Assembly (NCBI GenBank): GCA_051294905.1
Contig: CM119371.1
Span: forward strand, 33,420,001-33,484,000
Length of the DNA: 64,000 bases
Reading direction: 5' to 3'
From: Botryllus schlosseri
Taxonomy: Eukaryota
Positions within the stretch are counted from its first letter, which is position 1. The number at the start of each line of letters is the position of its first letter. Of the stretch, positions 1-23,972 are shown in pieces. Below the pieces are notes generated by a model. That model worked only from the letters and a program-made list of their open reading frames with translations. It ran no database searches and was not told where the DNA came from. The translations under genes and the position numbers were made by a program.

Positions 1-2304
1 GGTCGCAGATTCTCATGAGCAAGTCATATTTTTGCGTGTCTCGCTTATTGGATATAGTATGCAACAACAGTGACCCTGGATATATGTAAAAACCATCGCC
101 GAATTTTTTGCAATAAATTCAAAAAATACTACATACATATCAACAGATAGTTCTGGCAACGTGTCGACCTATCATCATATACTCTTTGCGGCCAATACTT
201 TAATAACCCTTGAAGGGCTGAGAATTTGCAATGGAGTAACTTGCAAATGTGAGTCTGCAATGTTGGTACTAATCAATGAGCACTTACATTGCTGTGCAAG
301 TTATTCGTCTCAGGTACATTGACAGTAATATTTACAACAATTTCATGGGGTTGGCAGCAGTGGCGTAGCAGCAGGTGCTGTCGCCCATGGCTTTTCTTGA
401 AAATTCCGCCGCATAAGCACACCGCAGCAAATTTCGACATAGTTTCCTGTCCGAGCACTCTTTTCGATAAAAATAATTACAAATAATATGCCGCGTATCA
501 GAAGTTCGGAACACATATAGTATTCGCCTGGTTTCCCGGCACATGTGCAACACGTCCCATTTCATGTTTCCCCATGAAATAATCGATTTCTTTCATGTGA
601 AACACTAACATGAATCCCCCTTTTTTTAAATCAATTATTCTCTCGTATTAAGTGCACGCCTGCTTATTCAGCATATTTCTAGTGACGCGTTTTAGGTTTT
701 GTCCAACTGAATACCTCGTGCAGTCCAATCCCTGAAAGTTCAACACAACTATTTTGTGAACACAGAAGCGATCATCCCGCGATATTTTCAATCTCCCAAT
801 TGCACTAATTTCACCGGTATTGGTCTTGTACACAGCACGACATCGGGATATGGAGAATGTAGCAATTTCAGTCTTCAGGTCCGCCGTATTCATGCTGATA
901 ACAATCTTCCGGCCTAGCGTCTTTGTCGTATTTGACTTGCTAGGATGAACAAACTTTCTGTTCATCATTTTGATCCCCTCGTTCATGAGAACTTTTGCGT
1001 TCGATTCAGTCGCCATGTGACACAACATGCCGTCACCTCCGTACACCCAGTAGCGGGGAATCGATCCTTTCGTATGTCCGTGTGTCCCGGCCAAACCGTA
1101 GTTCGTGACTACAGCCCTATCGCAACTTATCATGACGTCTTTTATTTCGGTCATTTCAACAATTGATTTCAGTTTGCCTTGTACAATCGCATGTATGTTT
1201 TCCCATTGGTGGTATCCATTTGTCGAGTCTTGGCACTCTGCGTGCCGGTAATGGTACATCAATGTTCGTTGCACCCCTTCTTGTTGATATTCACTCAAAA
1301 TATGGGTTACTTCTTCCTTTTTCGGATTAGCAGCACGGGGATCGTCATCTCCTACTGCCATTCCTATCCAATAGGATCGGGACAATCCATCTGACGCGAA
1401 TACTTGCATCGTGCTGAGATGAATCACTTCCTTTATTTTAAACCTAACTCGTAAGAGAAGTAAGTTACCTTCGGCCGTCTTTGTGCTGAGAGAAATGTAG
1501 GCCTCCATAGCTATTGTATTTTTTCTATCAGCCTGGCCATGTTTTTTTATGTGCTGCTGGTACTTCTCCGTTATTGGTTTCACCGCGAATGACTCCATAT
1601 TTGCTGACCACATGGTTACAGATTCTTGTAAATACTTGGTATGGCTTTCCCCTTTCACATTAGAGGGGCCAGAGACAAATGGCTTAAGTGATGGGTCTTT
1701 TAGTTCGCTGTCGTACTTGTACTTCATAGATTGGGGCGCGCTAAGATGACATCGCAGATCTTCCAGCTCAGTCACAAAAGGTTTGTAGACCTCTGGCCAT
1801 ACGTTGTCGGCAATAATGATATTTTCTGGCGTAGCTGAATCAAGGGGCTTATATAGCCATTTTGCTAGCTCTACTGATTGTGCGCACAGGAGCTCAACTT
1901 CAGTTTTTACCTCAGGACTGGTTCCCTCTTGTAAGACGTACGTGATTACCGGACCGTTTACCTTTCTGTTTGGCTTATGCGGTAATCGGGGTTCTGGTGT
2001 TGGTGCGGAGAGGGCGAGGTTTTTTTTCGTCAGCGGGACTTCCCTACCTATTCGTGTTAACCTCTGATCTCGGCGCGTGCCCACGCCTAACGTCACGCCG
2101 CCGAAATTTTCATCTGACGGGGCCCCTTGTTCTGGAGAGACTTGCATCCTAAAATCCCCAGACTCCTCTTTAGTCACCTCTGGGCTATTATCCAGAAAGT
2201 GAGTAGTAGCTGCTTTGGAACTATTGTTGAGTGAAGTAGGCATGACGGCGGCTGTCGTGGGATCATTCCGCACTGATGCATTACCGTCGTCTGGACAAAC
2301 AGCT

Positions 2305-2706
2305 TTGCCTACATCCTCGGGGTCTGCTTGATTCGTTTGACCCCCATTCGCGTCAGCGGGACTTCCTCGCTCGGCACGAATTAGACTGGTGTCAGCAGGA
2401 CTTCCTTGCTCGGCACCTAAAGAGTCTCTTTGATTTCTTGTAACGCCAGCGGTGTTAACCGACCAAACGTTTGCGTCAGCGGCCCTTGCCAACTCGACGC
2501 TCATATTGCCTACATCATTGGAGCCACCTTGATTAGTGTGAACTCCATTTGCGTCAGCGGGACTTCCTCGCTCGGCGCGATTTTGGCAGGTGTCAGCAGG
2601 CCTTCCTTGCTCGGCACCCAAAGAGTCTCTCTTTTCTATTGTAACGTCAGCGGTGTTTACCGACCCAACGTTTGCGTCAGCAGCCCTTGCCACTTCGACG
2701 CCAGCG
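2305..2706 (-). repeat. In-frame 201-bp (67-aa) tandem duplication within the pro-X ORF
   Basis: ARAADANV.SVNTA.VT...RDSLGAEQG.PADT...RAERGSPADANG occurs twice, and the DNA motif gtcagcgggacttcctcgctcggc recurs at ~2352 and ~2553. Confidence 0.9.
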
Positions 2707-3300
2707 CCAGCGGCCCTTGCCGTCTCGACGCTCTGCTGTTCTGCAGCTTTCACCAACCCATCCTTGGTCACAGTTTTGCAAGGACTGTTTCCAATTCTGG
2801 TTCCGTCCTTTTTATCGCGTAAAGTCATACTATGTAGTGTTGCCAATGACAATTCTTCATTATCAGTAGACGGAGTTTTAAATTCAGTATCTATACTCGG
2901 TAATTGTTGTACTTTGTCAATCCATTTTAGCCCCACAATATTAAGAGGAACTCCCTTGCCAGTTGCAAATGGAACTTGCAGTCCGTCAAGAGGTACTATT
3001 ACTAGGGAGTCGACTCGGGACGAACCTCCTATTCCGCTCAATTTCATATCAAGTGGCTGTCATTCAGCCCAGCTTTTCGGATATTTATTTTTTACTACGC
3101 TCTTCATAATCAAATTGGGAATACTGCCAGTATCGGCTAGAAATTTAGTGTCTGTGTTTGTATCCACTAGGTATAGAAGTTGCCCACCGAATAATTCCGC
3201 GAAATCCGGTTGTAGGGGTTTGTCCGGTGAATCAAGGAATGTAAACAAAGGTAACGAGGCATTATGTACAGTTTTAACATGTTGGGGTAATATTGTGTCA

Positions 3301-3344
3301 GGGAGCTGATTCACCGGATCAATCAGCGCCCCCAACCGTTTTTT
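3301..3344 (-). promoter_or_regulatory. -1 programmed ribosomal frameshift signal (slippery heptamer A AAA AAC + downstream hairpin)
   Basis: Minus strand reads TCA AAA AAC GGT TGG GGG CGC TGA in the gag frame. A -1 shift enters the protease frame (R-L-G-A-L-I-D-P). A few nt downstream, GGGG-C-GCTGATT/GATCCGGTG/AATCAGC-TCCC can form a stem-loop. Confidence 0.85.
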
Positions 3345-6076
3345 GAGACGCGTAAACCTTGTTCTAATTCCTCATCTGTCCAGTAAGAGGCGGCGTATTG
3401 ACGCGGCTCTTGTCTATATGAAGGCGCAATCCAGTTTACCTGGCTGTTATTTAGAATTGGATTCGCGGGTGGTCCCCTGGGACCCCATTGGCCCCTATCG
3501 TGCCAGTGGGTTCTATCTCTGTTTTTAGGTATACTATCATAATAGGCCTCACATAGATTCGTTCTTTCTGCCAACGGGGGAGAGCCATGGGATATGAGAT
3601 ACCGATCAAGGTCTGAAATCGTCAATAATCCATTGCTAGTAAGGAACGGACGCCAGTTGCGTTCAGCGGATTCCTTAATACGCTGCGGCACCGGTCGTAC
3701 ACGTTTACGGATTATCCATCCCAATTCGCTATCTCTAGTGAGTACCACATTGTTTAGCCAAAGGATAAACTTGGCAACGCAATTCCGGGATTGATGCCCG
3801 GGGGCCTTACAGTAATAACATACCGAAAGGGCCTGGCCCTGGGAGGGATTCAAATATAAACCTAATGGGGCAAAGATATTAGCATTGCCAAGGAAATAGT
3901 ACCTCTCACCTTGGCTTTCCGCGATGTGGCGAGCCTCCTGACTGTTCGACGGAGTAATTTGCGTATTATCTGGTCCCACTCCAGAATCTTGTGTTCCTTC
4001 TGTTCGTGGGCTTCTTTGGCTTGAAGATCCTGGTTGTTGACCGGATTGTGCTGACCCTGAAATATGTACAGTCTGGATATCGGGTTCAGCAGAGGCGCCT
4101 TGTCTAGTAGTTTGCGCTCGTCTGCCTGGCCCGATACCACTCGATACGTTAGTAGGACGCCGGTTTAATCTTGCGTATCGAACAGGATTTCGGCGTAATT
4201 GTGTGACCTGTGCTGTATTCACAAGAGGCCGTGAAGGGACCACTCTGGGAGGTTGAGGTGGCGTTGCCTCGAATTCGGGCGGAGGATGGGAAAAAGATAA
4301 GGTGGGCTCCGGAAGTACTCCCAGTTGTCCATTACCGTTAGGGTGAGTGGGATAGCTATGTATCACAGGATCAGCGGGATGTACATTATAGATATGTACA
4401 GGCAGCAAGGGCGACTTGTTCGTCTGAGTTCTTCGGGTTCTCCGAGTCGTCGGGCTCGATTCCTGTTCATCTTGGAATTCCGAGTTCCAGAACAGTTGGA
4501 GTTCTTCCGCGACTTCCCGCCAGGTGTTTTCTTCCCACCCCCGTATAATCAACCTGAGTGCTTCCGGCAGCCGCTGTCTCAAATTGCGGAAAAGTCGCAG
4601 TCCGTCCGGGTTGTCCAAAATTAGGTCATCCATATCTATCTCCAGTTGTTTCAGAGCACTGTTAAGTAGAGGTAGGGGTTCGTCTTCCCAATGATACTTT
4701 CTTCGGAAGTTGTTGACAATTCTCTCATTATTCACAATTCCTTGTGGGTTGGAAAGTGACAGCGACCTCATAACCGATTCCCAGCTGGCGTTTCCCGAGT
4801 TTGTGTTGAAGAAGTTTCCAAGTTGATCAGCTTGTTTGTAACGCCCAGCATTCTCTAATTTCTTCTGCATTGCATTCATCAATATTATATCAGCGTCAGT
4901 ATTACCTTCACCGTGGTGAATTCGTCTCATCGTGTTCTCCATCCATTTAAGGAGAGGCATATCGCCCGGATCCAACATCAACTGTATCATTTCCTTTTCG
5001 GACTGAAATCTAGCAGGTATAGTTAGCGCTGGGTTTACCATTACCTCCATCGGTCGCGAGCGCGGCTGAATTGGGCGGTCATCATATTCCATTTGTTGTA
5101 CAAGTCTCTGCAGTCGGGATGTCGTCGCCCCTTCAGAATCAGAATCTTCTGGTTGAGCCTCCGAGTCTCCTTCGTCATACTCCTCCCCTTCTCCACGGAA
5201 AATGACGTGTTTAGCGTTGCTCGGCGATTTTCTTGCCCGACTACTTCGTGTCCCAACATCACCCAACTTGTCAATGTCCCGCCGCTGACCCTTCGCATCT
5301 CGAGGTCTCGACACCAGTTTCTGGAATGAGGAGAGATGTTCACTGTCCAATTCAGAGTCTGTTTCGCGTTCCATTCTCATCGGTCCTCCTGCCGCCACTC
5401 CCGTAGGTGTCCAATACGCCATGGGCGTGTTAGCACCACCTTTGGTCTTCATCGCAGGATGCATGCTCCCTTTTGTTCTAAAATTCGGAGCCATCAGTGA
5501 ACGGGCAACCGGGGTCGGACGAGGTGGATCATCAGTCTTCACGTCTGGGTGCGTATGGTAGACCGCCGTTACTGTATGACAATCTAACCCCTTTTTCACG
5601 GCCAAGGTGGGCATAGGCTGAGTCTTCCTGACCGTCTGGATGGCTGGTGGATCGTAGGCCGGTGGAGGTGCTGTGGGCATGACAGCCAGGGCGTGAGAAG
5701 GATGTGGTTTCTCTCCTACCGCTTGCGTATGGGCGTTACCCAACTTGAATTCTGTCTGCAAAATTTCGTTTAATACGTCTGTGGAAACCTTTCCAGTAAT
5801 TTTTGAAGTGGCGTCACAAACGGCCTTCAGGTCAGCTTGAGCCCGCCGGACGTCTTTTCTTGCTTTTTCCAGCTCCTTCACTGCCTCAGGCAGGGTCGTT
5901 TTGACCTCCTTTAGGACTCTTGTCTGGTCGGCCACATCTTTAGCAAGTTGCCTCTCTTGGTCTTGCACATCTTCGTGACGCTTTTGGGTATATTTAAGCA
6001 GTCGGATTCCCTGCTTTAGCTCCGCCGATGCCTCCGTTGGTTTCTTCTTTTTAAATAGTTTCAAGATTCTTCGCAT
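3323..6076 (-). CDS. gag: Gag-like polyprotein, 917 aa
   Basis: Intact ATG ORF. It has a basic N-terminus (MRRILKLFKKKK), a coiled-coil-like region at about aa 15-95, PTAPPPAY at aa 134-141, a helical capsid-like segment (...LRQRLPEALRLII...TWREVAEEL) and a CX2CX4HX4C knuckle CYYCKAPGHQSRNC (3779-3820). It ends at a frameshift site followed by a protease. Confidence 0.88.
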   Translation of the reverse strand: MRRILKLFKKKKPTEASAELKQGIRLLKYTQKRHEDVQDQERQLAKDVADQTRVLKEVKTTLPEAVKELEKARKDVRRAQADLKAVCDATSKITGKVSTDVLNEILQTEFKLGNAHTQAVGEKPHPSHALAVMPTAPPPAYDPPAIQTVRKTQPMPTLAVKKGLDCHTVTAVYHTHPDVKTDDPPRPTPVARSLMAPNFRTKGSMHPAMKTKGGANTPMAYWTPTGVAAGGPMRMERETDSELDSEHLSSFQKLVSRPRDAKGQRRDIDKLGDVGTRSSRARKSPSNAKHVIFRGEGEEYDEGDSEAQPEDSDSEGATTSRLQRLVQQMEYDDRPIQPRSRPMEVMVNPALTIPARFQSEKEMIQLMLDPGDMPLLKWMENTMRRIHHGEGNTDADIILMNAMQKKLENAGRYKQADQLGNFFNTNSGNASWESVMRSLSLSNPQGIVNNERIVNNFRRKYHWEDEPLPLLNSALKQLEIDMDDLILDNPDGLRLFRNLRQRLPEALRLIIRGWEENTWREVAEELQLFWNSEFQDEQESSPTTRRTRRTQTNKSPLLPVHIYNVHPADPVIHSYPTHPNGNGQLGVLPEPTLSFSHPPPEFEATPPQPPRVVPSRPLVNTAQVTQLRRNPVRYARLNRRPTNVSSGIGPGRRAQTTRQGASAEPDIQTVHISGSAQSGQQPGSSSQRSPRTEGTQDSGVGPDNTQITPSNSQEARHIAESQGERYYFLGNANIFAPLGLYLNPSQGQALSVCYYCKAPGHQSRNCVAKFILWLNNVVLTRDSELGWIIRKRVRPVPQRIKESAERNWRPFLTSNGLLTISDLDRYLISHGSPPLAERTNLCEAYYDSIPKNRDRTHWHDRGQWGPRGPPANPILNNSQVNWIAPSYRQEPRQYAASYWTDEELEQGLRVSKNGWGR

Positions 6077-6097
6077 GGCAATAATAATAGATTCAAT

Positions 6098-6544
6098 TTA
6101 TAGACCCGTAGTAGAGTTTTCGAGGTCCCGCTTTACGCTGGAGATAGTCGGGTCGTCCAAGGTAGGCCGTATTGTTGTTCCGAGTGATGAGTTGTGGTCG
6201 TTAGTCTCGAACTCCGGAAGTTTAGAAAGCGAGTCTTTAGTAATGATAAATTGGCGTCCTGCAGATATGTTTTGCGAGCCAATAAGAGTTGGGAACGGTG
6301 TTGTAACTCCGTTGTTAGGTCTTCCGTTTCCAATCGGAACTGTAGTTGGAGAAAACCCCGGTACTAAATGTAAATATATTGATGATAACGTGACTAACAA
6401 TGAAATTACAGACGCAATCAGGGCCACGACCAATACTGTTTTAACGATGGTCGTCTTTGAACACATTGATAGGTCCACGTGCTGCACTGGAAGTAATAAT
6501 CCCAGCTTGGTGCCTCCAGTACGTTTATAGTGCAGCTCCAGCAA
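6098..6544 (-). CDS. Small putative single-pass membrane accessory protein upstream of gag
   Basis: Hydrophobic stretch VLVVALIASVISLLVTLSSIYL followed by a Thr/Ser/Pro-rich tail with N-x-S/T sequons (NIS, NSS, NST). Its stop lies 21 nt before the gag ATG. The true start is uncertain (track start is TTG; internal ATG at MCSK). Confidence 0.5.
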   Translation of the reverse strand: MLELHYKRTGGTKLGLLLPVQHVDLSMCSKTTIVKTVLVVALIASVISLLVTLSSIYLHLVPGFSPTTVPIGNGRPNNGVTTPFPTLIGSQNISAGRQFIITKDSLSKLPEFETNDHNSSLGTTIRPTLDDPTISSVKRDLENSTTGL

Positions 6545-6901
6545 CGCTTGTTACTGCGAGAGTCCACACTTGGTTCGATTTTACTTCACAGTGCTGGTTT
6601 TCCTTATCTGTGTTGATGTTGTGACCTTGTAGCATCCACAAATGGTGATTGAAGCAGTGGTAAGGGTAGCAGCAGCTGGATCCAATCAGGCAATGACCTC
6701 CAGGTCCAGAACTCTAAACTACTCTGGTATAACTAGTAAATTAAACCTTAATACAACCAAATACTCCAATAACAACCATGCAAAGAGGAATGAGGTTTCT
6801 ATGAGTAAAACCAGATAAAATTGGTAAACATGCTTCAATTATATTACAAGTTTTATCTAAACCTATTCATCATAATGCACGAATAATAAACATTCTCAAT
6901 A

Positions 6902-7011
6902 CTCCAAGGTTTGTTTACGCATATAATTCATGCGACGGCCTGTCCTGCCGAAAAGCAGCTCCAAGGTTGGTTTACACATATAATTCATGTGACGGCCTAT
7001 CCTGCCGAAAA
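6902..7011. repeat. 57-bp tandem repeat, 2 copies
   Basis: ctccaaggtt.gtttac.catataattcatg.gacggcct.tcctgccgaaaa at 6902 and 6959. Confidence 0.85.
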
Positions 7012-7906
7012 ATTCATTCATGAAATATTGTGTCATTACACAACACTCAATTACAATAGTATTTTGATCAAAATCTACTATATCTCTGGGTTCGATGGTA
7101 CTGGTGTTTTAAGCTTTTTATTCATTCGTATGTACCGTGTCTCACAGACCATAGATCTGATTTACCACGAATCCTAAACTTCTTTCCCGCTAGGGTGAAG
7201 GGTCCCGACACTAACATAAGGCGTGGTCGGTTTATAACGCCTTACTGTACGAGACGGTACAACAGAGATTATTATAAACACTCATTGTAACAGGTTTGAC
7301 TTTGTAGAGAATCTGTGACGTTATTGTAGGGAGGGATATTTATTTTAGTAACTTGTGACATTAACCAACGTGTCAAGGACAAGTATTTTCCTAATTTAAT
7401 GTCGTTTACACATACACCCTAGTTATCCCTACAGGGCCCAGCTATTTACATATATGGTAGTTAGTCACAAGTCTCACTTAGTCAAACCCTGCTATCGTCA
7501 TGCACTATTATTAATAGTTTACATCAATACGGTTAACACAAAACAAACAAATATATATTAATCAGGTACCACTCGATTAAACGGCGACCCAAATATGTGT
7601 GTCAACAACAATACACATACCAGTAGGCTACATTACGCAATGATTCAATACGTAGTAATATGACCTCACCCTCAGTCAACAACAAATGCAATTATGCAGC
7701 GACAACTTACTATTCACATAATAAATGTCCATTAACTCTTAACTATGTTCAGGGCATGAAAATGTTAGCGCCATTTAAAGCAACCTGATAGTAATTATCA
7801 AGAACATAGTAATTATAGTATTTGAACATAATAAAGCGAACTAGCTTCACTACACAACTTTGTTTCCAGTCCACTAGACAGAAATACGTTTATCTTGCCT
7901 GCGCCG

Positions 7907-8735
7907 TCAAGCTCCATACACTTTGATCTTTTGCGATATTTTCCCATTGCAGAATATGCAGTGCTCAGCATCGGACGAACATTCTTGACACAGACCGGGA
8001 TCAGGGTAATTTCACTCCTATTATTCTTGCATTGTTTGCAAAGTATGGTTTCTTGTATAACCATCAGATTCTCAGCAATTTCTTCATCATATGCAATTTC
8101 CAATATTGATGGCGTCCCCATTCTGTTTCTAGCATAAACAGAGTTGCCCAGTCTACTCTTACTGTTGCGCAGTTTGTGTATTTGAATCGACTGGCACTAT
8201 ATCGAGTAGTATCAAAGGGTCTTGTACGACATCGTTCACAGTGAAATGAATATTTGATCGTCTGCTGGTGGCTCTTTTCTGTGTGACTTCTGCTAAATCT
8301 TATGCTGTCCAACTGCATCTTCTTGGCATCTTCCTCTGACAATCTGGTTCGAGCGACGCGTATTTGCGTTCCTATTTCGGCGGCCGGTGAAGGTTTTTGT
8401 GCTCGCTTTTTAGGCGTAGTCCATGTTTACACCGCAGCTGAAACACTTCACTCTATCTTTGTATCCTGACCAATAAAATCTCGTGGCCGCCATATCAGTT
8501 GGCAAAACTGAAGCTTCTTTTGATATGGACGAAATGTCACCAATCTATAAAATTCAGCTCGGCGATTGCAAGGTGGAATATAGCTGCCGTTTTTTTCGGG
8601 AGAATCGCGATATCGTGGAGTGGTGATTCCATCTTCTTGTATAACTCGTTGTCCTCTCGGTACATTAGTGCTTGACGGAACAGGCTTTCGACAAAATCGT
8701 GTGGAATGAATTGATATGTCCTGTCATCGATTCAT
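7907..8735 (-). pseudogene. Intronless inhibitor-of-apoptosis (IAP)-like gene, BIR + C-terminal RING, disrupted by frameshifts and deletions
   Basis: Manual translation across frameshifts. 8558-8415 gives AEFYRLVTFRPY/KEASVLPTDMAATRFYWSGYKDRVKCFSCGVNMDY, the N-terminal two-thirds of a BIR. 8070-7907 gives NLMVIQETILCKQCKNNRSEITLIP/LCQECSSDAEHCIFCNGKISQKIKVYGA*, an IAP-type terminal RING whose CGH is deleted at the frameshift. Confidence 0.85.
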
Positions 8736-9281
8736 ACGATAGCTTAACTACACGGGTGTGTAGAATATCTTGATATCGTATTTAATCTGTCTTATAATTT
8801 CGAAAATGAGAATGACACTTGTACTTCATGACGCAATTTATGCGTACGTCTATAGCAAAAAAATTAACTCATTAAATTAACTCATTAAAATAACATTGTC
8901 CCAACTCTTGTACAGATATCGATATAACAAACGGTTGACACACCCGCTTCGTAAAACGCATGTGTCGACATCAGGGCGGACCTATGACTAACGTGGTTCT
9001 TGATCATCGACACATCTGTTTCGGAAAACAAATGTGTGGATGGGGCCAATTTATTTGCCATTTTCAAGTTCATATTATGTGTTCTAGGGTGTTTTCTAAC
9101 CTAATTAACATACTATTTTATTCCGATTATATATACATCACTATTACTACACATATAGGCTATCATATATATCTATTTATTCAGGTTATATATTATTTCT
9201 TCATTAAACATAGTTTAATTAAACCAGATAGGGATGCCAAATCATTGAGTGTACCCTAAGACTTTATTAGTCAGCCCTATC

Positions 9282-9443
9282 AATTTAGTTTTCAAGGCTT
9301 CTCTGAAAAATCTAGCATTTTCAGTCCTTTGCCTATTAATTTAATCTTCCAGGCTTCTCTGGATAATCGAGCATTTCCAGTCCTGTGCCTATTAATTTAG
9401 TCTTCCAGGCTTCTCTGGATAATCTAGCATTTCCAGTCCTGTG
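9282..9443. repeat. 56-bp tandem repeat, ~3 copies, in the retroelement leader
   Basis: aattta.tcttccaggcttctctggataatctagcatttccagtcctgtgcctatt-like units start at 9282, 9338 and 9394. Confidence 0.9.
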
Positions 9444-9748
9444 TTGTCACCCGTGGCAAAATCAGACCATTGTTTCCAATGGCGGAGCCTTAAATTAGAC
9501 TCATCGGCCAATGTCACATAGATACTCTGATACTCCTGATAACGTATGTGTCATCATCAGGAATCTCAGTGATCTCAGCGATTTCAACCCTTGATCGAGA
9601 GACATATATTCTTGTGGTACCCAGACTGAGTGCTCGATCTCGGATTCCTTGCAGCTTAATCGTGGACACATGGTATCACTACTAATATTTCATAATTGGT
9701 GTAAATTAATCATAAATTTACACACGAAAAGTTTTCAGATCACATGGT

Positions 9749-9761
9749 TCACGTCGGGGTC
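9749..9761 (-). promoter_or_regulatory. tRNA-Trp primer-binding site (partial, lacking the initial TGGT)
   Basis: Minus strand GACCCCGACGTGA matches 13 nt of the classical tRNA-Trp PBS TGGTGACCCCGACGTGAT. It is directly preceded by ...TTCA (a possible LTR end) and lies upstream of gag on the same strand. Confidence 0.65.
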
Positions 9762-10654
9762 TGAATGCGATTCCGAGCCAAAATCCAATCCAAGTCCGAC
9801 TCCAACTTCATATCTTATCTAAGTTATGTTATATAATATTCTGTTAACCTACAAGGGCATTTTATCATTATATATTCATTTTATATATTTGATGAAGTTT
9901 TTATTTGATTTTTAAATTCTTTTATCAATTCTTTTCGTGGGTGCTTACTGCTTATATATATACATACTGCAACACTTATATTTTATATACATTGTATTGC
10001 GACAATATATTTGTCCCTCCTTCCTCCCTATCGTGGTTGGAATGCAGCCTCTACTCGCGTAACCATGGGTGTCAAAAAGTGAGATTTTCTCACAATCTAC
10101 TTATATATACGTCATTGCTACATTACCAACACCATAGTGATTTTATGTACTATATACAATGAATTTGAAATCTTTTTCCAAAGCTGTTCGCTGGGTTAAC
10201 CGGAAACGCATCTACTTCTAGAGCTAAGGGAGGTGCCATGAGCTAGGGACAAACGTACGACACAAAATATACCTATGTATACATAATTACAACACACATT
10301 ACTTTGCGGTTGGATGCTGTCCAAAAGGTAAGAATTCAATTCGTATAGGTGATTCTTAAGATGTTCTACGGTTTTATTCAAAAAGGGTTACTTATCTCAT
10401 TGTTGTGAGCTATTGGGTCGCGCCATAGACGGTTCCGGTAGCCGACACCAGGCACTACCCCAAGCAGCGAACACCGTAATATCGGCTCTATGCCCAAGCT
10501 CAAGAAATATATCTATACTATAAAAGAAATGCTTCAACAAAACTTCATCATATCGAACAAGTTTCTATAGATAAATGAATAAATAAATAAATGGCGTATT
10601 TAAAATGATTACAATACCTTTTCAAAATAAACACACGGTGGCTCTCTTACAACA
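9762..10654 (-). repeat. Putative 5' LTR
   Basis: On the minus strand it begins TGTTGTAAG (10654) and ends ...TTCA next to the PBS, and it contains AATAAA motifs. There is no second copy in the window, so the boundaries are a guess. Confidence 0.3.
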
Positions 10655-12345
10655 TAGGTGGTCGTTGTTTGGAGTTATTAAGTCTTCACATCCGTTTACT
10701 TCTACTGGTTATTATTCATAGTGGGTCTAGAAAATAGTTTATAAATGCCACCATTTCAGTTCTTCTCTCTCTCTCTCTCACACACACACTCAATATTATC
10801 TTAGGGAAAGGTTTTCAACCAAAACGGTCACTATCTATTATTTGTGTATATCATGTCTTCAAAATTGACCTTACACTATTGAACTAAACTCAGTTAGATT
10901 TGGCCTTAATGCCTCGAACTCAGAAGGTCACCAGGGTTCGACAAAGTACTTTGCTAATATCAAAACTCGTGTTACTTGAAGACTCAGACCTTATTGCTCT
11001 AGTTTTTGGAGTTTGGGGCCATACTATTGAGTGATTTATGATCTACAATTGAAATGAACCGACTATCAACCATAACGTAACTAGAATACTCAGCAATTAG
11101 CAAAATTATCAAATCTGCAATCTTTCGTCAGTTCTGACATTTTTTAGCTTAAAAGCAAAGACGTGTGATTTACGACAATCAGTGTAACATCATATGCTCA
11201 TAATATTAGGTTTTTCCGCTGTCAAAGGCTCAGTAATCTGCATGGGATTATTGTGAGATCGCATCTTATCATAACAAATATCATGTATCGCCATTATTGT
11301 TGTCTTGTCTGCTGTGTAGTACAGACTGAGTTAAAAATGAAATACTCTCTCCCTCTCTCAAAAAACACAGAGCCTGAACAAACGTAGGCAAAAATGCCCT
11401 CTGCAAATAGGTAACTTCACCAGTAACACTGAATTTACTAAAAAATGCGATGAGGCTACCGTATTGACCTAATCTGCAAATTACTCTTATAATAGTGCAG
11501 AAAACTGACAAGGGAGTTGTCAACAGGCTACAGCAGCATGCTGTTCAGAAGGGTTATTAACTGTTGATGAGTGGGAGTTTATCAATACATTTTCTTTTTA
11601 AGCCTATAGAGGTCTTGTTACAGTTTAATCCTGATAGATACCACAGTATGGACGTCTATTCAGCTTGAGCTTACATCTATACTGGCATTCAGGCAAAGAA
11701 AATGGCTCTATATTTACCAATTAGGAGTGAGTTTCAACGCAGTCATGGTTGGTGATACCATTGGTGGCCAAAGTTCACCGAGTGTGTGATACCAGCATTG
11801 ATCACTGTTGCTGAGACGTTGCTTGGATTGGGCTGAATCCTTATGACGGTCTACTTGATTGACAAAAAAGAACTCAGGTAAATTTCAGCCACACAAGTGG
11901 CTTAACTATTTGGCATCATTCTGTGGTAGATGCCTCAAAACTTATAAATCTGTCTTGTATACTGGCCTGGACAATTCCAATTGATGTACCAATGATGTGG
12001 ATGCGTTAATACCACAAGGTCAGATAAAGATACATACTTTATCAAGATTTTACATGACTTAACAGGCAATTACTTAGTAGTGGCCACTCTTGAAATTGCG
12101 AGATGCATCATTAGACTAATGCAAAAATGACAGATAACGTGTCACAGTTTCAATCGACGAAAATTTATTCAAGAAATTACTGATGACTATTTTATGCAAT
12201 ACTTGTGCAATTTTTTACGAAAATGACGTAGTGCTATACCTAATCTCATGCCAAGACTATACTAAACTATCCAGAAAGACTACGAATTGTTCCGCTACGG
12301 AACGCCCTTGGGTGTTTCTTCCCCCATAAGATCTAGCATCTAAGT

Positions 12346-13264
12346 CAAGGGTCGGCAACCTACGGCCCGCGGGCCGGATCCGGCCCGCCAAGCGAAATCG
12401 TCCGGCCCGCGACGAAATAATTAGTTACCACAAGAATACGGCCCGCCGTTTCGTAATGAGTTCCAATCTGCAGTGCAGCACTGCTTCGAAAAATGTCAAA
12501 ATTTATAATGTTTTCTTCCACTTACGGATGATGACTCCGGAACATGTAATTCACGCACCTACGGGGCTCGTTCACTTTCCTATACTGGAGGAGAGTAAAC
12601 CTAGTTACAGCACTATACATTTGTAACTGTGATATACCAAATTTAATCAATGAATTTCCATCCGCTTTTCCGACATTCGTTCTGTACAAAATAAATTCTG
12701 ACTAACCAGTAAGCTACTCCGGCTAATGTGGGCGCCAATACCATTGCCAGAAAATTTCAAATGGGCCCATTTGAAATGCCATGCAATTGAATTGAATGAC
12801 AAATTTCATACAAAGAGCATATCGCTGATTGACTTTGACAACGAGTACGTTCTTGATATGGGTCTTCATCCCAGCTTGACCAACAATGCAAAAGAAATAG
12901 CATCGACTTTTGGTAGCACGTGCGCATGTGAACAATAGTTTTCAACGATGAAATTCACGAAGAGCAAGCTAAGATCACGTATCCCAACGCACATTCAGAA
13001 TATGGCCTGATTCTAGCTTCATCTGACTTGTTACCAGAAGTTGAAAACCTTTCACAAAGCAAGCTGCGCCCTTTGTCACATTTATGCTGCGTTGTTGAAG
13101 TGTTTTGCTCTTTTTGTGATTTGTATGATTGAGAATGCAGCATTGTAGGGTAATATACCGACGTGACCGTTAAATATAGTATTAGGAAAAATTCCGGTCC
13201 GGCCCGCCAAAATGTTGTGCACCGGAAATTTGGCCCGCGACTAGCAAAAGGTTGCCGACCCCTG
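12346..13264 (+). mobile_element. Internally deleted hAT (Charlie/SPIN-like) DNA transposon with a transposase C-terminal remnant
   Basis: TIRs caagggtcggcaacc / ggttgccgacccctg and a perfect 8-bp TSD ATCTAAGT (12338-12345, 13265-13272). The remnant FGSTCACEQ*FSTMKFTKSKLRSR matches the hAT C-terminal dimerisation region. Confidence 0.92.
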
Positions 13265-15189
13265 ATCTAAGTCATTGTAATTTTGGACAACCACAATCTT
13301 CTATGCTCTGTGACACCTTTAAATCAATCGGTGTCTATTAACCTTTAATTGGTTACCTAAAATAGGGCATGTAAATTTATCATTCAGGCGTTGGCAAGAC
13401 CGCAGTGCAGAACCACCCGTTTTGAAACTTGCCTTGACGGGAAGAAGTACCGAAGTACATAAATAGCTATTCTTATCGCGATACAAAATACTGCTTATCA
13501 TTTTTGAGAAATAGCTAGGTTGGCTAACCCCGTTACGGTGGTATTACTGGCTCACTGATCATTGCTTACTAATAAGATTAGTTTTGGTGCCTTGGAATAA
13601 AGCCACGCCGGTAACAAAATATTATTTAGTGAACCTGTAATTCTGCCATAACTAATAGTGTCGTTCATTGAATAGTAAACACATTTAGTATTGTCTATGA
13701 TTCAACATTCATAGGTATAACGACCCGCTGGACCCGTGTGAATTTTTCAAAATGAATTATTACTAGAACGGGAATTAAAATCAAATATCAATTAATATTA
13801 AAATAAAGTAAATTCAATCAATTATAGTTTCGCCATCGCGATGATTAATACACCTACAAGATGGTGCTTTTTCTTTAGACAGGTCAGTTCCCTAAATGTC
13901 ACACGGATATTCTAAATCTGGATCTGGAGCATGACTCGCGGTGGACATCTCTAGCCATCTTGATGTAAACATAACTCAGAACAGAGCAGCCGCCAGCATC
14001 ACGCATGAAGAAACTTGTACTCCATCAGTACCCCGCACTACACACCGACTTCAATGCTGCCAGTCAAATCACTACTTCGGCTAAAGGTTTGTTTTATCCT
14101 TCCCAAGCCACGTATAGGCAGTTCCAAACACGATATATAGAGCCCAGTGGTCATATTGTCAACACGGTACAATCAAAGTCAAGATTGTATTAATTCTGTA
14201 TCGCATTGCTGCATGCTGTATATAAGAATGAGTTCGTGTTTGCCCATATGTAGTTAGTGATGTAGTTAGTTGATCAACTCTTGTCTTAGTAATGATGCAA
14301 TTACTATTAACGATATGATCAAAGTAAAATTTCAAAGTAGTTAACTTATGGTTTACCAATGTAGAAGTAATTACAAATACATTTATTTTACAACATACAA
14401 CGCGAGCCATATACATACATTGATTAGCCTACAATATAGCCTCAGAAGAAAGTAATAAGCTAGTTTGCCAAGTTCACAAAGGTTTTTTCACCACAGAGGA
14501 CTATGGCCATAGATTCCAATGTTGAGTAGGACCGTGTGTGAACGATGAACATGCATTTGCTTTATGCCCACAATCTACTTGGTACAGATATCGCAAGCTG
14601 CCTTTTCAGCGATGGCGAATAGAATTTCAATTAGTCTTCATCCTTACCAACATAGGCATTTTCTAATGACTGAGATTAAGTAATCACTATCTTAGATTGG
14701 TATAATTAGTATTTGGAACAGATCTCTAACCCACTAAACTTATAAAGCAGTGTGAAATTCGACTTCGTTACGTACAACGACAGCTTAGAGAAACAATACC
14801 AGGTATCATATATGTACTAATCTGCTTGTCCAATTATTTGCTGACAATTGACACTATCTCTTACCTTCAGTGTTGCAAGCATTATTTATGCTCAATCCAA
14901 CCCCTCTAACAGAGCCCGCAGTCGAACAGTGTTAAATAAAAAGAAAACACAAACCAAATCACAGTATTTTCAGTCACGAATCATCAACGGGTCATGTTTT
15001 ATCATCATGGACTAGAAATGTGACGTAAAGCTGATCTTCCACGGCATGGTAGCTTTTAAAAGTGATGTGATAGTGTAGTTTGTTGAGATTTCAGTGTTTT
15101 CATAGTAGTTTTAGGTTGAACTTCAAGTTCTTATATCTAAAAAAGAGATGTGGCACTGTAATATATTGTCGAATACTTGAAATTCCAAA

Positions 15190-15262
15190 ATGCCGTGGCG
15201 GGCCGCACAAAATGCTCTCGCGGGCCGCATGCGGCCCGCGGGCCGCGTGTTTGAGACCTCTG
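15190..15262. mobile_element. hAT-type MITE end fragment
   Basis: gcgggccgcatgcggcccgcgggccgcgtgtttgagacctctg: ggcccg subterminal motifs and a hAT-like TIR ending in ctg. The partner end was not found. Confidence 0.6.
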
Positions 15263-15473
15263 GTTTAAATACTATTAATACGGTGTCCGAACGCAGAACA
15301 CTGATAACCTTGCTAATATATATGCTTGGCTTAAAAATTTCTATGCATTCAGTGCTACCTGCAATAACCCTAGTTATTGGGAAACACTTACAACTCTCAG
15401 ACCCCCGTAAACACTACCTGTCCAACGCATAGACAATATCGAACTTGCTGGATAAAGAAACTCCATTGAACCT

Positions 15474-15648
15474 GTTTGTTTTTTGGGGGGGGGGGGTATT
15501 CATGGTGTTTGTCGACTGCTATAGTCATTTACACCAGGCCGATATTCTTCATATTTTCCGTAACTGCCGACTTATAGCACGGCCCACCTCTAGGCTTTTG
15601 TAAGACACCGCTGACACGGATGAGGTGGCGAGGAGGAGCCTAGGTAAA
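15474..15648 (-). mobile_element. tRNA-derived SINE, 5'-truncated copy
   Basis: Matches the body and (CAAA)n tail of the SINE at 49562-63533. It shows the uninterrupted sequence cacggcccacctctaggcttttg. Confidence 0.85.
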
Positions 15649-21600: not shown

Positions 21601-23972
21601 TCGTCACCGCGAACGGAATATTCATCAATTATTTATAACAATCGTCAGTAACGAGCAAACTAGAAAACAAAAGATTATCGACACGCGATTATTGCTTGCG
21701 TGATTTCTGTGCTAATTTACCCCAATATTTTCAAGTCTAGCCGTTATTCTAGAATTTACACAAGTTGGTGAGCAATATTCGTAATGGCCGATAAATTCCA
21801 TCGGCTCATATTGCTCACACTCATAGTTATTCTTCCACTGCGGTCACTGCCGTCCCAAACACGTCAATGTCCCCTTCACCTCGGAATCAAAAGCGCACAA
21901 GCACAACACATGCGCGTCCAGCACGCCGCCCAAACATCACATGGTCGACCGAAAAGATCATCGCTCCATCAAGCATGCCGGACCTGACGTGTGGAATAGC
22001 ATCCCGCCGGCCATCCGACACCCGACGAGCATGCCCGCACCCAAGTCGAAACACAAGCAATCACCACTAAATAAACACCAGTCCAGGTGCCGGCAACCTT
22101 TCGTATGCAGCATGCCAAAATATCTAAAAATGTAAAATATTACCAACCCGCGTGCCAACCATTTTCATTTTCAATGTTTCAAGCAAGGAATCACACTGAC
22201 CACCTATCTGCAGAAGGTACCGGCATTGGTTACGTCAGATATTCTTACAGTATTGGTCGATGAAAGGTATAAATTTTGGTCCCTACCACACTAGACCTAT
22301 ACCGTCTAATGTACGTAATATGTGCAATTGTGCATCATTTAAATTTAGTCGCGTAATGGCCGATCTTCAGTGGTTTCCTTGATCGTTTCCAAGTCTACTG
22401 TGTTCGGTACCATAGCCAATAAGCGACAGGCCGATCAAAGATGTTATGAAGAGATGGTCTCATGATGAAAAATGTCTCAACCCCTGTACCAAGGAAGTCG
22501 GTTTGATGTAACTATTGGTCTGACACTAGATTTGTCTGCAAAGCTCCAAAGATTGCGGTATAGCGGTAAAGGTTGTCTTTGCTCCAGACATATTAGAATT
22601 GCTTACACGTATCAGGCGAAACCAAAATAATATATCCTTTCGTGAGACCAACCCAATTCAAAATTCGCATTTCGACACGGGACTCATTATCTGTGTGGAT
22701 CTCATATGAGACGTGCGGCTCAAGCTCCGCGTCGGTCATTTCGGCCAGGGACTTATAGAACTCTATATATCCCTGATTTCGGCGCCTGGACATATCATTG
22801 TCGAAAGTTTAGGCCAATATGCGGTGGTTATTATATTTAGATGCTCTATCGCCGTCAATCATTCGGCAACGCATACAGCACACGCAGCAGTCGCACTTTG
22901 CCCGAAACATGCGAACCCTAACGTGAAAATGGCTAGCGCAAAAATACTGGTCCATATAAAATATTCGCGGTCCCACAGGCTGCACAGTGTACCCTCCTAG
23001 ACTAAAGTATCAAAGCAGTTTCATACGATATTAGGTTGCCGTATATATTTTCGTGGGTTTCGCAATATCAAGTAATTATACGTCATGGTAAATCTCGCGA
23101 AGAGCAAACAATGTTATCTTTTCATTGCATCACATTTCCTCGGTGCATTGAAAGATAAAAATTGCTAATAAATGATGATTATATTGACCGCTGACCTCCT
23201 GCGAAATGAAATCATTGTGCCCCACATTCTCGCATCATTACGCACTAATATCACTCGCAAATATCTTGCGGAAAAGGCGGACTTATGCTTGCGATAACAA
23301 TGCACGCACACAAATATTATTATTATTGAAATCAGACTTAGTATGACGGTTATAAATTTGTTCGCCTTACCTTATATGATCTCTCCATTATCAAATGTGC
23401 GCGCAAACGATCGGTATAATTAATTTCACCGTTGTCTTCCATAATATGAGGCAGTTCAGTGTAATGTGAAGCCGCTGGAATTGTCCGGGTTTTTATCCAC
23501 ACAATCAGAAGTGTATCCTGTTGAAATCCCTGCACGCAAGTCGGCACTTACTTGAGCTAGTTCTTGTGAGGTTTTGGCTCGTTTCAGTTTTGGCTGATTG
23601 ACGCCCCATGTGAGAAGAGGTATTGCGCTTATGTCGTGATTGGACCAGACCTAACGAAGTCCCGGATATCCTTCTTCAGATAGCTTATTACCAATGCACC
23701 TTCTCTCCTATTCCGGGCTTTAAATTTATCTGTTCCGTATATAGTACAAATAATCTTGAGCCCCGGCCAAATTGCGGCCCACGTGAAACATAAATCAATA
23801 CATACTGCATCACATCACATCTCAAATCCCGTGTTCCCTACTGATAACGGCTTATCTCCAGGCGTTTAGTATACTTGACCCAGAAGTTCTATATTGCTTG
23901 AGAAAGAAGCCCATCTCAGCGTTTATAAGGCCAAAACAATAATGACAAGAAATGGATACGAATGTATTAGGC

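Follow-up and report, generated by a model that had tools for sequence, protein, structure and literature searches.

A decayed BIR–RING apoptosis-inhibitor gene in a non-autonomous derivative of a Merlin-ended element family of Botryllus schlosseri

The window, a stretch of 64,000 nucleotides of Botryllus schlosseri DNA, contains the broken reading frame of an apoptosis inhibitor (IAP) with BIR and RING parts. We consider it highly probable (roughly 0.8) that the gene from which this BIR...RING sequence decayed belonged to the element in which it lies, and that this element, 23.4 kb long and non-autonomous, arose by deletion from a family of giant, ~38-kb elements with Merlin-type ends. The IAP, of host origin, had long been resident in the elements before it decayed in a non-autonomous lineage of deletion derivatives; it was not newly captured by an LTR retroelement.

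The IAP remnant in the window copy

A frameshifted BIR...RING remnant occupies 8684..7907 on the minus strand of the window. The preliminary description had placed a gene hidden by several frameshifts at 7907-8735; these coordinates are accurate, and all the BIR and RING motifs it quoted were found on the minus strand, spread over three frames. We mapped the remnant by frameshift-aware tblastn, using as reference the 581-aa IAP of a related element. The resulting map has six colinear pieces with five frame changes between successive pieces: (i) the N-terminal region and proximal BIR1 at 8684-8419, i.e. 8684-8514 (aa 2-57 of the 581-aa IAP) and 8544-8419 (aa 48-89); (ii) the linker at 8351-8162, i.e. 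8351-8271 (aa 428-454) and 8266-8162 (aa 456-489); and (iii) the RING at 8109-7910, i.e. 8109-7996 (aa 511-548) and 7990-7910 (aa 555-581). The stop codon at 7909-7907 lies in the same place as the stop of the 581-aa IAP, and colinearity starts at residue 2 of the stop-to-stop frame of that protein, upstream of its first Met. The remnant has no equivalent of residues 90-427, which correspond to the distal BIR1, BIR2 and BIR3. The copy is dead, as had been supposed.

Eight stop-free pieces of the remnant were run against Pfam, and two of them matched. The piece at 8413-8544 (minus strand) matched BIR (PF00653) with 29.3 bits (E 1.3e-6, cut-off 22.9), although only over profile positions 14-47 of 70, and the piece at 7910-8011 (minus strand) reached 17.5 bits (E 0.0036) against zf-C3HC4_3 (PF13920, the IAP-type RING), below the cut-off of 27. 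The remaining six pieces had no Pfam match, and a 26-aa piece in the third frame did not match BIR. Profile searches therefore sustain the BIR, while the RING of the window falls below the cut-off that a sister-copy RING exceeds. The distal His and Cys zinc ligands of a complete BIR are missing, since the mapping ends at residue 89 and restarts at residue 428. The Cys-Gly-His (CGH) stretch of the RING is also deleted in the window copy.

Copies of the remnant in the genome

Searching the genome with the DNA of the remnant gave 34 matches, six of which, including the window's own, are full length with 94-100% identity. Presence at this locus only, which would have spoken against the first interpretation, is thus not the case; the remnant is multi-copy and is linked to gag in all copies. 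A search for intact copies within the window's family had been suggested, and none of its 12 copies has an uninterrupted IAP. Residues 90-427 are missing in all 12, and the loss of the distal BIR ligands is accordingly common to the family, as the preliminary description had it for the window. By contrast, the missing CGH, although real, is a lesion of the window copy: 7 of the 12 copies keep it, and the RING open reading frame (ORF) of one of them (L002) scores 42 bits, above the cut-off of 27. The BIR of a sister copy scores 24.8 bits against the PF00653 cut-off of 22.9. In another copy (C13), the dead IAP stands beside an open 1244-aa pol with reverse transcriptase (RT) as well as RNase H and Tpt1.

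Boundaries and gene content of the carrier

The remnant sits in a 23,374-bp repeat that spans 508..23881 of the window and reads on the minus strand. Its limits were set by comparison with two empty sites (L021 and L022), where the flank at 1-507 and the flank from 23881 onward are joined with one AGAAGTTC between them; these sites are paralogous repeats, not alleles. In the window, AGAAGTTC occurs on both sides of the element, at 500..507 and 23882..23889, as a target-site duplication (TSD), and a boundary at 505-508 is common to the family's copies compared. Terminal inverted repeats (TIRs) lie at 508..531 (3' end, minus strand; the element strand ends in ...GTTCC) and at 23858..23881 (5' end, minus strand; it begins with GGG on the element's strand), and 17 of their 24 positions match in inverted orientation.

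The 3' end of the window element is homologous to that of the 38-kb family. Here, a pol remnant at 800..3389 (minus strand) was mapped by tblastn against the 38-kb family; it keeps the protease part and a Tpt1/KptA-like C-terminus, has lost RNase H and the RT core with its YIDD motif, and contains an in-frame TGA at 3062-3060. It includes an 803-aa ORF (P0001; 648..3059, minus strand) without any Pfam match, which BLASTP aligns with the 1160-aa pol of the 38-kb family (P0002) in four blocks of 45-57% identity, leaving residues 517-632 and 701-939 of P0002 unmatched. The window copy has no transposase remnant either, and is non-autonomous.

A gag-like gene at 3323..6076 (minus strand, ATG at 6076) is open and has one CCHC zinc knuckle, which scores 20.5 bits against the Pfam zf-CCHC cut-off of 20.8 (E 5e-4). 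It shares 54% identity over 981 columns with the gag of the 38-kb family, at which distance dS is saturated and the ratio is not computable; against the C13 copy, dN/dS is 0.18. About 650 nt upstream of gag lies an exact 24-nt copy of the host trans-spliced leader (6747..6770, minus strand). The intronless IAP remnant follows further upstream, co-oriented with gag and 5' of it, as first described. Upstream of the remnant are three tandem 56-nt repeats (9276..9443), which other copies match at many tandem offsets and of which they appear to have more units, and then the remnant of a 171-aa ORF (9510..9671, minus strand; tblastn, 46% identity over 54 residues, E 1.9e-10). The latter serves as a synteny anchor: in the 38-kb family the 171-aa ORF is also upstream of the IAP, with two ORFs in between. 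The remaining 5' part of ~14 kb (9672..23857, minus strand) is common to two further copies (C16 and C1b). It contains no ORF of at least 110 aa and no recognisable transposase, and at the protein level the 5' end region does not resemble any of the 38-kb element's ORFs. A secondary insertion of ~0.9 kb (12348..13264), with inverted ends of its own, is absent from C16 and C1b.

Ends and element class

We then compared the ends of different copies. An 8-bp target duplication is found at three of the four copies compared, i.e. the window (AGAAGTTC), C4 (AAATCGTG) and the 38-kb copy C10 (CACACATG); the pair of ends from C15 has no matching 8-bp duplication, and its two ends may belong to different or rearranged copies. 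The inverted ends are 24 bp long, start with GG and match at 17 of 24 positions in C10 as in the window, and with seven mismatches they are short and imperfect. Repeat finders missed the TIRs, which emerged only when the ends set by the empty site were compared. Over the window element, these programs found no LTRs, no long TIRs and no pair of direct repeats spanning the element; no stretch of more than 13 nt is common to its first and last 800 nt, hence there is no terminal redundancy, and no LTRs were seen in the searched part of C10.

LTR elements produce target duplications of 4-6 bp and have TG...CA ends, which GG...CC ends with an 8-bp duplication do not resemble. Neither rve nor Integrase_H2C2 was detected in the 1160-aa or 1244-aa pol, although an unrelated LTR element in L044 matched in the same type of scan. 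The preliminary description had taken the carrier for an LTR retroelement and had located the IAP between a primer-binding site (PBS) and gag. The LTR assignment is contradicted by the Merlin-type ends, the missing LTRs and terminal redundancy, and the lack of a retroviral integrase in relatives; without an LTR, a PBS has nothing to anchor it, and tRNA and Rfam scans of 1-26000 of the window returned no tRNA gene and no Rfam family. Its attribution of retroelement genes holds, since the element family encodes a reverse transcriptase: a gag with a zinc knuckle and a PR-RT-RNaseH pol are present in relatives, and in the window gag is open while the RT and RNase H of pol are lost.

TIRs starting with GG together with an 8-bp TSD characterise the Merlin DNA transposons, which are related to the bacterial IS1595/IS1016 family and reach lengths of only a few kb. 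The elements described here differ in their size of 23-38 kb, in having ~20 co-oriented ORFs with two paralogous transposases, and in additionally carrying gag and pol, a glycoprotein-like ORF, an IAP and a ubiquitin E2. The superfamily is defined by 8-9 bp TSDs and TIRs of at least 24 bp beginning with GG, its TIRs can be imperfect, and it is present in ascidians, as described in PMC8101967; the DDE_Tnp_IS1595 ORFs of 317-327 aa, the ~24-bp TIRs starting with GG and the 8-bp TSD of our elements agree with it. A classical DNA transposon has one transposase gene between two TIRs (PMC8101967).

The 38-kb sister family

The 38-kb family has at least 40 copies, one of which (C10) was read through and contains 20 co-oriented ORFs. 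These comprise, among others, two IS1595/Merlin-type DDE transposases, a glycoprotein-like ORF, an LRR protein, the 581-aa IAP, the ubiquitin E2, a CCHC gag and a PR-RT-RNaseH-Tpt1 pol without integrase. The two transposases score 39.3 and 29.4 bits against DDE_Tnp_IS1595 (cut-off 27) and are 41% identical to each other; at ≥85% identity, 26 of 31 copies of the DDE transposase genes are free of stops. The pol contains RVT_1 (65.6 bits), RT_RNaseH_2 (69.9 bits) and Tpt1/KptA (42.5 bits). Its nearest relative is one metagenome protein (46% identity), followed by Ty3/gypsy-type pols with identities of at most 29%.

The domains of the 581-aa IAP comprise three BIRs, with 201.9 bits, and one RING, with 37.9 bits. 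The preliminary description had proposed measuring dN/dS among copies; for the intact IAP the ratio is 0.19 between the two copies compared, which indicates purifying selection. Open IAP frames of 505-583 aa exist at 24 places in the genome. Both families share the gene order 171-aa ORF (a remnant in the window), IAP, spliced-leader motif, gag and pol. The IAP has the same position even though gag identity between the families is only about 54-60%.

In the glycoprotein-like ORF (851 aa), a hydrophobic stretch follows a polybasic site; a long helix is predicted, and a membrane anchor lies at the C-terminus. A language model places it near clusters of coronavirus spike, paramyxovirus F-type and haemagglutinin proteins (0.89-0.90, low recognition), none of its 40 sequence relatives has a Pfam family, and its AlphaFold model has a mean pLDDT of 57.6 and a pTM of 0.47. 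Foldseek searches of PDB and BFVD gave nothing at E ≤ 0.001 (best E 0.18-0.31, TM <0.1). Judged by its sequence architecture, the protein is possibly a class I fusion glycoprotein, i.e. an envelope.

As a tentative proposal, to which we give somewhat less than an even chance, the family would be a previously undescribed chimeric, virus-like element of tunicates: a Ty3/gypsy-type element lacking LTRs and integrase that integrates through Merlin-type DDE transposases acting on GG...CC ends. Its ~20 co-oriented genes would perhaps be expressed as a trans-spliced polycistron and perhaps include a class I envelope; its selected IAP and E2 would manipulate cell death and ubiquitination, and the RT-Tpt1 protein would act in replication. 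Searches of open-access full texts brought up neither an account of a Merlin-type element with gag and RT nor one of a fusion of RT with Tpt1 (RNA 2'-phosphotransferase-like).

It is also possible, again with somewhat less than an even chance, that the family is a pure cut-and-paste Merlin DNA transposon in which gag, pol, IAP and the remaining genes are passengers without a role in transposition. The TIRs, the 8-bp TSD and the intact DDE genes would all fit, as would the lack of the terminal redundancy needed for reverse transcription of a linear RNA, and 38 kb exceeds the traditional retrotransposon limit of roughly 10 kb (PMC6431247). However, comparisons of diverged lineages show that gag and pol have stayed open under purifying selection (dN/dS 0.18 and 0.28), and gag frames of 939-988 aa are open at nearly all places among the matches listed. 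ORFs of at least 140 aa number 20 on one strand of the 38-kb element and 1 on the other, and the element contains intronless host-derived genes and a spliced-leader relic. These observations argue against mere passengers.

Origin of the IAP

Database searches identified ascidian IAPs as the best matches of the IAP, with up to 44% identity. In a tree of IAP C-termini, both element IAPs form one clade with two host exons on C12 and three Styela clava IAPs (support 95/89), within which the branching order is not resolved and the two element IAPs are not recovered as sisters. The homologous C12 genes give several colinear matches that are separated from one another, the pattern expected of genes with introns. 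A phylogeny against host IAPs, as had been recommended, thus places the relatives among host (ascidian) IAPs.

The 'compact BIR+RING' form is not the form in which the gene was captured. It is a deletion derivative of the IAP with three BIRs and a RING that occupies the same position in the sister family. This shared position implies that the acquisition predates the split of the two families, and the analogy with oncogene transduction drawn at first therefore fits neither this copy nor its subfamily.

An unlikely, though not negligible, alternative is that the IAP of the window's family stems from the host IAP cluster on C12, which would have supplied it at that site either in a second capture or by gene conversion. 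In its favour, the BIR-region DNA of the window's family is 76% identical to C12:7201402-7201548 and 67% identical to the IAP of the 38-kb family, and the tree leaves room for it. In the RING, the element IAPs are 62-68% identical to the C12 host exons (62-63% for the window's family), and the RING of the window's family is ~56% identical to that of the 581-aa IAP by a count made by eye. All these comparisons of the window IAP cover short stretches of 26-62 residues, however, and the remnant is colinear with the 581-aa IAP from before the first Met to the shared stop, whereas a C12 locus (L045) matches that protein only from residue 29. The flanking gene order is also identical in the two families.

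Very unlikely is the scenario that comes closest to the preliminary description, in which recent transduction by a classical LTR retroelement placed a compact BIR-RING mRNA of the host between PBS and gag, in the manner of an oncogene. The remnant indeed has no introns and stands upstream of gag in the same orientation, gag and a Ty3/gypsy-type RT-RNaseH are encoded by the family, and the spliced-leader relic before gag shows that at least one cDNA copied from trans-spliced RNA has found its way into these elements. Nevertheless, this scenario is already contradicted by the anatomy of the ends, and the missing LTRs, terminal redundancy and integrase domain weigh against it. So do the derivation of the short form from a three-BIR IAP by loss of residues 90-427 and the retention of the same IAP position in a family with such a divergent gag.

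Least credible of all is an independent processed pseudogene of a host IAP that fell by chance into one element and spread with its copies: the remnant is intronless and dead in all copies, but the 410 nt 3' of its stop contain neither AATAAA nor a poly(A) run (longest A run 3; a poly(A) tail of its own had been named at the outset as a sign of such an origin), similarity to the 581-aa IAP starts at residue 2, before the first Met of the frame, and its place in the gene order is that of the intact, selected IAP of the sister family.

The following history is compatible with the resident-gene interpretation. The ancestor of both families would have acquired an ascidian host IAP in intronless form, for which reverse transcription of its mRNA is the simplest route. 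The IAP itself has neither a spliced-leader relic nor poly(A), and the case for capture by way of mRNA accordingly lies in its lack of introns. Where elements are intact, the IAP may act during their expression to dampen cell death or ubiquitin signalling of the host, perhaps jointly with the E2 that the element encodes. The lineage of the window presumably ceased to need the gene, which decayed while the lineage kept multiplying. The window copy would have been inserted by a Merlin-type transposase supplied in trans, and the DNA integrated could have been either excised DNA or cDNA made by the element's RT.

Comparison with other systems and implications

Large DNA viruses, such as baculoviruses and others, carry host-type BIR-RING IAPs. 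They resemble the present case in having a host-type BIR-RING IAP on a mobile or viral genome, which here is under purifying selection; by contrast, the element IAP has three BIRs and groups with ascidian host IAPs, and its carrier is not a large DNA virus.

Burro elements have an integrase; in our elements neither an integrase nor an LTR was found, the ends are of Merlin type and the IAP is a separate gene. According to a review (PMC6431247), the Burro elements of planarians are Ty3/gypsy LTR retrotransposons of giant size that contain BIR and RING-type motifs as well as BCL2-like and ubiquitination-related ones; the review suggests that they interfere with apoptosis and ubiquitination in the host. 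They are a precedent for a giant unit that combines retroelement gag and pol with BIR and RING motifs, although they have LTRs and their extra motifs lie inside a huge ORF1 polyprotein (PMC6431247). Teratorn of teleosts, a fusion of a piggyBac-like transposon with an alloherpesvirus, is similar in that a DDE transposase and TIRs integrate a virus-like gene set with host genes, and differs in its herpesvirus partner, piggyBac type and size of 41-182 kb, compared with a retrovirus-like, Merlin-type element of 38 kb here (PMC6431247). Envelope-carrying Ty3/gypsy elements (errantiviruses) are reported also in tunicates (PMC13524379). They have gag and a Ty3/gypsy-type RT-RNaseH in common with our elements, and possibly also a class I fusion glycoprotein, whereas their LTRs, tRNA primer site and integrase set them apart from the present elements, in which LTRs and integrase were not found.

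The dead IAP is a relic and minor in itself; the surprising part is the element family. It unites features of the two great classes of transposable elements, i.e. Merlin ends and transposases on the one hand and a retrovirus-like gag and RT on the other, and is relevant to a possible exchange of integration machinery among retroelements. A host-type apoptosis inhibitor has been kept under selection in one lineage and discarded in another, and whether a transposon needs to block cell death becomes testable inside one genome. The elements also bear on the expansion of the IAP gene family.

Spliced leader and expression

RNA-seq evidence comes from three bulk runs, of which ~6% of each was read and matched at a likeness of at least 97%; a further run (X1), which covers parts of the window, consists of contigs that may be DNA and was left out. 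RNA-seq had been proposed as a check for spliced leader transcripts. Read depth is ~0-1 over the IAP remnant, as it is over gag and pol, and the reads stack only at the leader copy at 6747..6770, where their bodies vary on one side and the other side carries an adaptor-like tail. For organisms with spliced-leader trans-splicing, the family poses the question of how retroelement-like units of such large size come to be expressed. The same 24-mer lies 527 nt upstream of gag in the 38-kb element, and 30 of its 99 matches in the genome are upstream of a listed gag.

Borders and coding content of the window element

The repeated unit that contains the IAP remnant (8684..7907) extends from ~505 to ~23885, and comparison with other copies reveals sharp borders on both sides. 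Outside positions 508 and 23881 lies a different repeat, which is uninterrupted at paralogous places on the same contig. The sequence AGAAGTTC is present as a single copy at two of these empty sites and twice in the window (500–507 and 23882–23889). The C4 copy carries an 8-bp duplication of its own (AAATCGTG); no matching 8-bp duplication was found between the two ends compared on C15. The first and last 24 bases of the window element are inverted repeats at 17 of 24 positions, with a GG start on each outward-reading strand. No long direct repeats spanning the element were found, and the 800 nt at either end have no common sequence of more than 13 nt. The element thus lacks both LTRs and terminal redundancy, leaving nothing to which a PBS could be anchored. 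The LTR-retroelement carrier proposed in the preliminary description gives way to an element with short GG-starting inverted ends and an 8-bp duplication. The host repeat of insertion (window 1–507 and 23882–24800; C1:32.45–32.70 Mb) has many occurrences 30–50 kb apart on the same contig and further ones of lower identity genome-wide.

The element reads on the minus strand. An open gag-like gene with one CCHC knuckle (6076..3323) is followed by a pol remnant (3389..800) that overlaps it in another frame. The RT core (with its YIDD motif) and RNase H are deleted from this pol, which retains the protease part and a Tpt1-like end; its 803-aa ORF (P0001) has no Pfam match. Upstream of the IAP remnant, 9672..23857 contains no ORF of at least 110 aa, and no transposase remnant is left in the element.

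Several smaller features were also identified. Three tandem 56-nt units occupy 9276–9443; in the C16 and C1b copies, matches to it fall at many tandem offsets, so that these copies appear to hold more units. A ~0.9-kb insertion (12348–13264) has inverted ends of its own and a short target duplication; absent from these two copies, it is therefore a nested small transposon. A ~100-nt stretch upstream of the IAP remnant (window 8937–9040) has 75–78% matches at about two dozen genome places. Many of these precede gag genes of further subfamilies by 2.5–3.5 kb. The stretch is a candidate conserved non-coding or regulatory piece of the element group. Outside the element, a 534-aa open frame of C2H2 zinc fingers (36711–38315, minus; 14 matched stretches) is apparently a host KZNF-like gene or exon.

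An intact 38-kb sister family

Using the RING-bearing ORF of a sister copy of the window's family as a query, we found open IAP frames of 505–583 aa (~40% identity) at 24 genome places; a gag search revealed open frames of ~954 aa, 59–60% identical, ~5 kb downstream of these places. One copy was read through (C10:14409935–14447974; 38,040 bp; hereafter the C10 element). It is flanked by an 8-bp duplication (CACACATG) and has GG-starting ends that match each other in inverted orientation at 17 of 24 positions. Its 3' end and that of the window element are homologous. In one DNA search, all 40 long matches listed (including the query's own place) stop at query positions 575–600, most of them at 575–578.

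ORFs of at least 140 aa in the C10 element are nearly all co-oriented (20 on one strand, one on the other). A DDE_Tnp_IS1595 transposase (327 aa; Pfam 39.3 bits, cut-off 27) adjoins the 5' end, and a second such ORF (317 aa) scores 29.4 bits; the transposase gene is positioned at the 5' ends of elements and is stop-free in 26 of 31 copies at ≥85% identity. The element also contains (i) an 851-aa ORF (L052:5264–7816); (ii) a 1162-aa Ser/Thr-rich ORF ending in a hydrophobic stretch and then basic residues, which we read as a putative membrane anchor; (iii) several small ORFs and an LRR protein; (iv) a 581-aa IAP (Pfam: three BIRs 201.9 bits, RING 37.9 bits) and a ubiquitin-conjugating E2 (Pfam 157 bits); and (v) a 954-aa CCHC gag and an 1160-aa pol (P0002) with a DTGS protease motif, RVT_1, RNase H and a C-terminal Tpt1/KptA-like domain (42.5 bits). 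Pfam identified no integrase in this pol.

The window and C10 elements share the order 171-aa ORF (remnant at 9671–9510, minus, in the window), IAP, a conserved stretch with a spliced-leader motif, gag and pol. The window element lacks the second transposase, a 239-aa ORF, E2 and five small ORFs. Judged from sequence, the intact sister family very probably explains its anatomy.

In the 851-aa ORF, a polybasic site (residues 493–498) precedes a hydrophobic stretch; the ORF also has a predicted helix of ~115 residues, 12 N-glycosylation sequons and a membrane anchor at its C-terminus. This predicted layout corresponds to the architecture of a class I viral fusion glycoprotein. By language model the ORF resembles viral spike, F and HA clusters, but a fold search gave no match. 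The Tpt1/KptA-like domain (RNA 2'-phosphotransferase; P0002 residues 1001–1150; also in the pol at L013:672–4403, minus) lies behind RNase H, and the RT-deleted window pol still keeps it at 52% identity; just one other protein among those searched has the same RT-RNase H-Tpt1 architecture. A relative at C13:16459582–16473277, apparently only ~14 kb from transposase gene to 3' end, contains gag and pol without an IAP match, which hints that transposase, gag and pol form the core of the element group. At C2:29.94 Mb (L044:3651–5999), a conventional LTR-type pol (RT, RNase H and integrase) has truncated one 581-aa IAP copy to its last 204 residues.

Decay, selection and origin of the IAP

The BIR and RING motifs of the preliminary description are present on the minus strand of 8735..7907, scattered across three frames. 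Eight stop-free pieces of this region were searched against Pfam: a 44-aa piece (8413–8544) matches BIR (29.3 bits, cut-off 22.9, E 1.3e-6; profile positions 14–47 of 70), a 34-aa piece (7910–8011) matches the IAP-type RING zf-C3HC4_3 below cut-off (17.5 bits against 27, E 0.0036), and the remaining six have no match. Profile scoring of the window copy thus bears out the BIR and not the RING; the RING ORF of one sister copy scores above the cut-off (42 bits). A DNA search of the window's genome (495 Mb, 219 contigs) gave 34 matches to the remnant, so the IAP sequence is not restricted to this locus. Six matches, including the window's own, are full-length (94–100% identity), and several others have an internal deletion.

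In a tblastn search, the 581-aa IAP matches the window in six colinear pieces, starting at residue 2 and ending at the stop that both share, with five changes of frame and nothing matching residues 90–427 (the distal half of BIR1, BIR2 and BIR3). These residues are absent from all 12 IAP copies compared in the window's family, none of which is uninterrupted. The BIR1 core is also missing in five, and the Cys-Gly-His stretch of the RING is kept in seven, broken in three, cut away in one and deleted in the window copy. On C13, a dead IAP lies alongside a pol that is still open (1244 aa; RT, RNase H and Tpt1); the lineage therefore still had the means to multiply when the IAP was lost. Neither a poly(A) run nor a signal, as looked for in a processed pseudogene, follows the window remnant. 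The remnant is most probably the element's own gene, decayed, and is in itself an ordinary dead relic. The initial observation is thus confirmed, and its interpretation as an IAP captured between PBS and gag of an LTR retroelement survives in part, shorn of LTR carrier and PBS.

Two copies of the 581-aa IAP give dN 0.031 and dS 0.166 (ratio 0.19); the gene is thus kept by selection in the 38-kb family. Between the window and C13 copies, dN/dS is 0.18 for gag and 0.28 for pol, and the two genes are thus important to how both families propagate.

In database searches the 581-aa IAP comes closest to IAPs of ascidians, with Styela clava at up to 44% ahead of Ciona, Phallusia and Clavelina; this also points to a tunicate genome. 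Contig C12 holds IAP homologues whose similarity falls into several separate colinear pieces, as expected of intron-containing genes. In a tree of C-termini, one clade (95/89) unites the IAPs of both elements with two exons from C12 and three proteins of Styela clava; no branching order is supported within it. In DNA, the BIR of the window's family is 76% identical to a C12 exon and 67% identical to the IAP of the 38-kb family. A second capture from the host, or gene conversion, could therefore lie behind the IAP of the window's family; we consider this unlikely and retain decay of the element's own gene.

RING-like fragments 63–70% identical to the IAP RING, with stops, occur on several contigs as many pairs in opposite orientation, 8–13 kb apart (e.g. 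C1:21484891/21493206, C11:14117824/14126139 and C16:3642837/3653349). The pattern suggests a further repeat family with a piece of an IAP RING in its long inverted ends.

Spliced leader and mode of propagation

Three bulk RNA-seq runs were mapped to the window (~6% of each run sampled; likeness ≥97% for depth). Depth is about 0–1 over the IAP remnant, gag and pol. A read stack is confined to 6741–6770. The reads in it have varied bodies to one side and, to the other, an adaptor-like tail, which we interpret as the mark of a template-switch oligo at a 5' cap. Among 99 genome matches to the leader motif here, the first 24 nt alone are invariant, and we read them as the host's trans-spliced leader. 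The window element contains an exact copy (6770..6747, minus), and that of the C10 element lies 527 nt upstream of gag (L049:2398–2421). For thirty of the 99 matches, one of 49 listed gag loci lies downstream, in 27 cases at a distance of 556–677 nt. In three other matches, mutual similarity starts only at the leader, as in retrocopies of trans-spliced mRNA. Together these patterns suggest that the ancestor of the elements incorporated cDNA of a trans-spliced RNA, and the embedded leader looks like a relic of such a reverse-transcribed RNA. No leader mark was found ahead of the IAP.

The structure of the ends, the presence of transposase and retrovirus-like genes and the selection on them are observed. 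Beyond this, we propose that Merlin-type transposases would integrate the elements, the window copy relying on transposase supplied in trans. The IAP of intact elements may dampen host cell death or ubiquitin signalling, perhaps together with their E2. Either cDNA from an RNA stage or excised DNA may be the integration substrate: an RNA stage is favoured by the co-oriented ORFs, the leader relic, the intronless genes of host origin and the selection on gag and pol, whereas the lack of terminal redundancy and the 38-kb size argue against a simple one.

Relation to known elements

Three Merlin features are present, i.e. a DDE_Tnp_IS1595 transposase (in relatives), an 8-bp TSD and GG-starting TIRs, and PMC8101967 includes ascidians among Merlin hosts. 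Merlin transposons have the same ends and transposase, but the size and cargo of the elements here are far beyond usual. Other closest known kinds are Burro, giant LTR elements of planarians with BIR, RING-type and BCL2-like motifs (PMC6431247), and therefore a precedent for BIR motifs in a giant retroelement; Teratorn, a piggyBac-herpesvirus fusion (PMC6431247); and envelope-carrying Ty3/gypsy elements of tunicates (PMC13524379). Full-text searches of one open-access library found no description of a Merlin-ended gag/RT chimera; the element family reached via the IAP remnant is unusual and deserves a proper description. The nearest relatives of the 38-kb family's pol are one metagenome protein (46%) and otherwise Ty3/gypsy-type pols at ≤29% identity.
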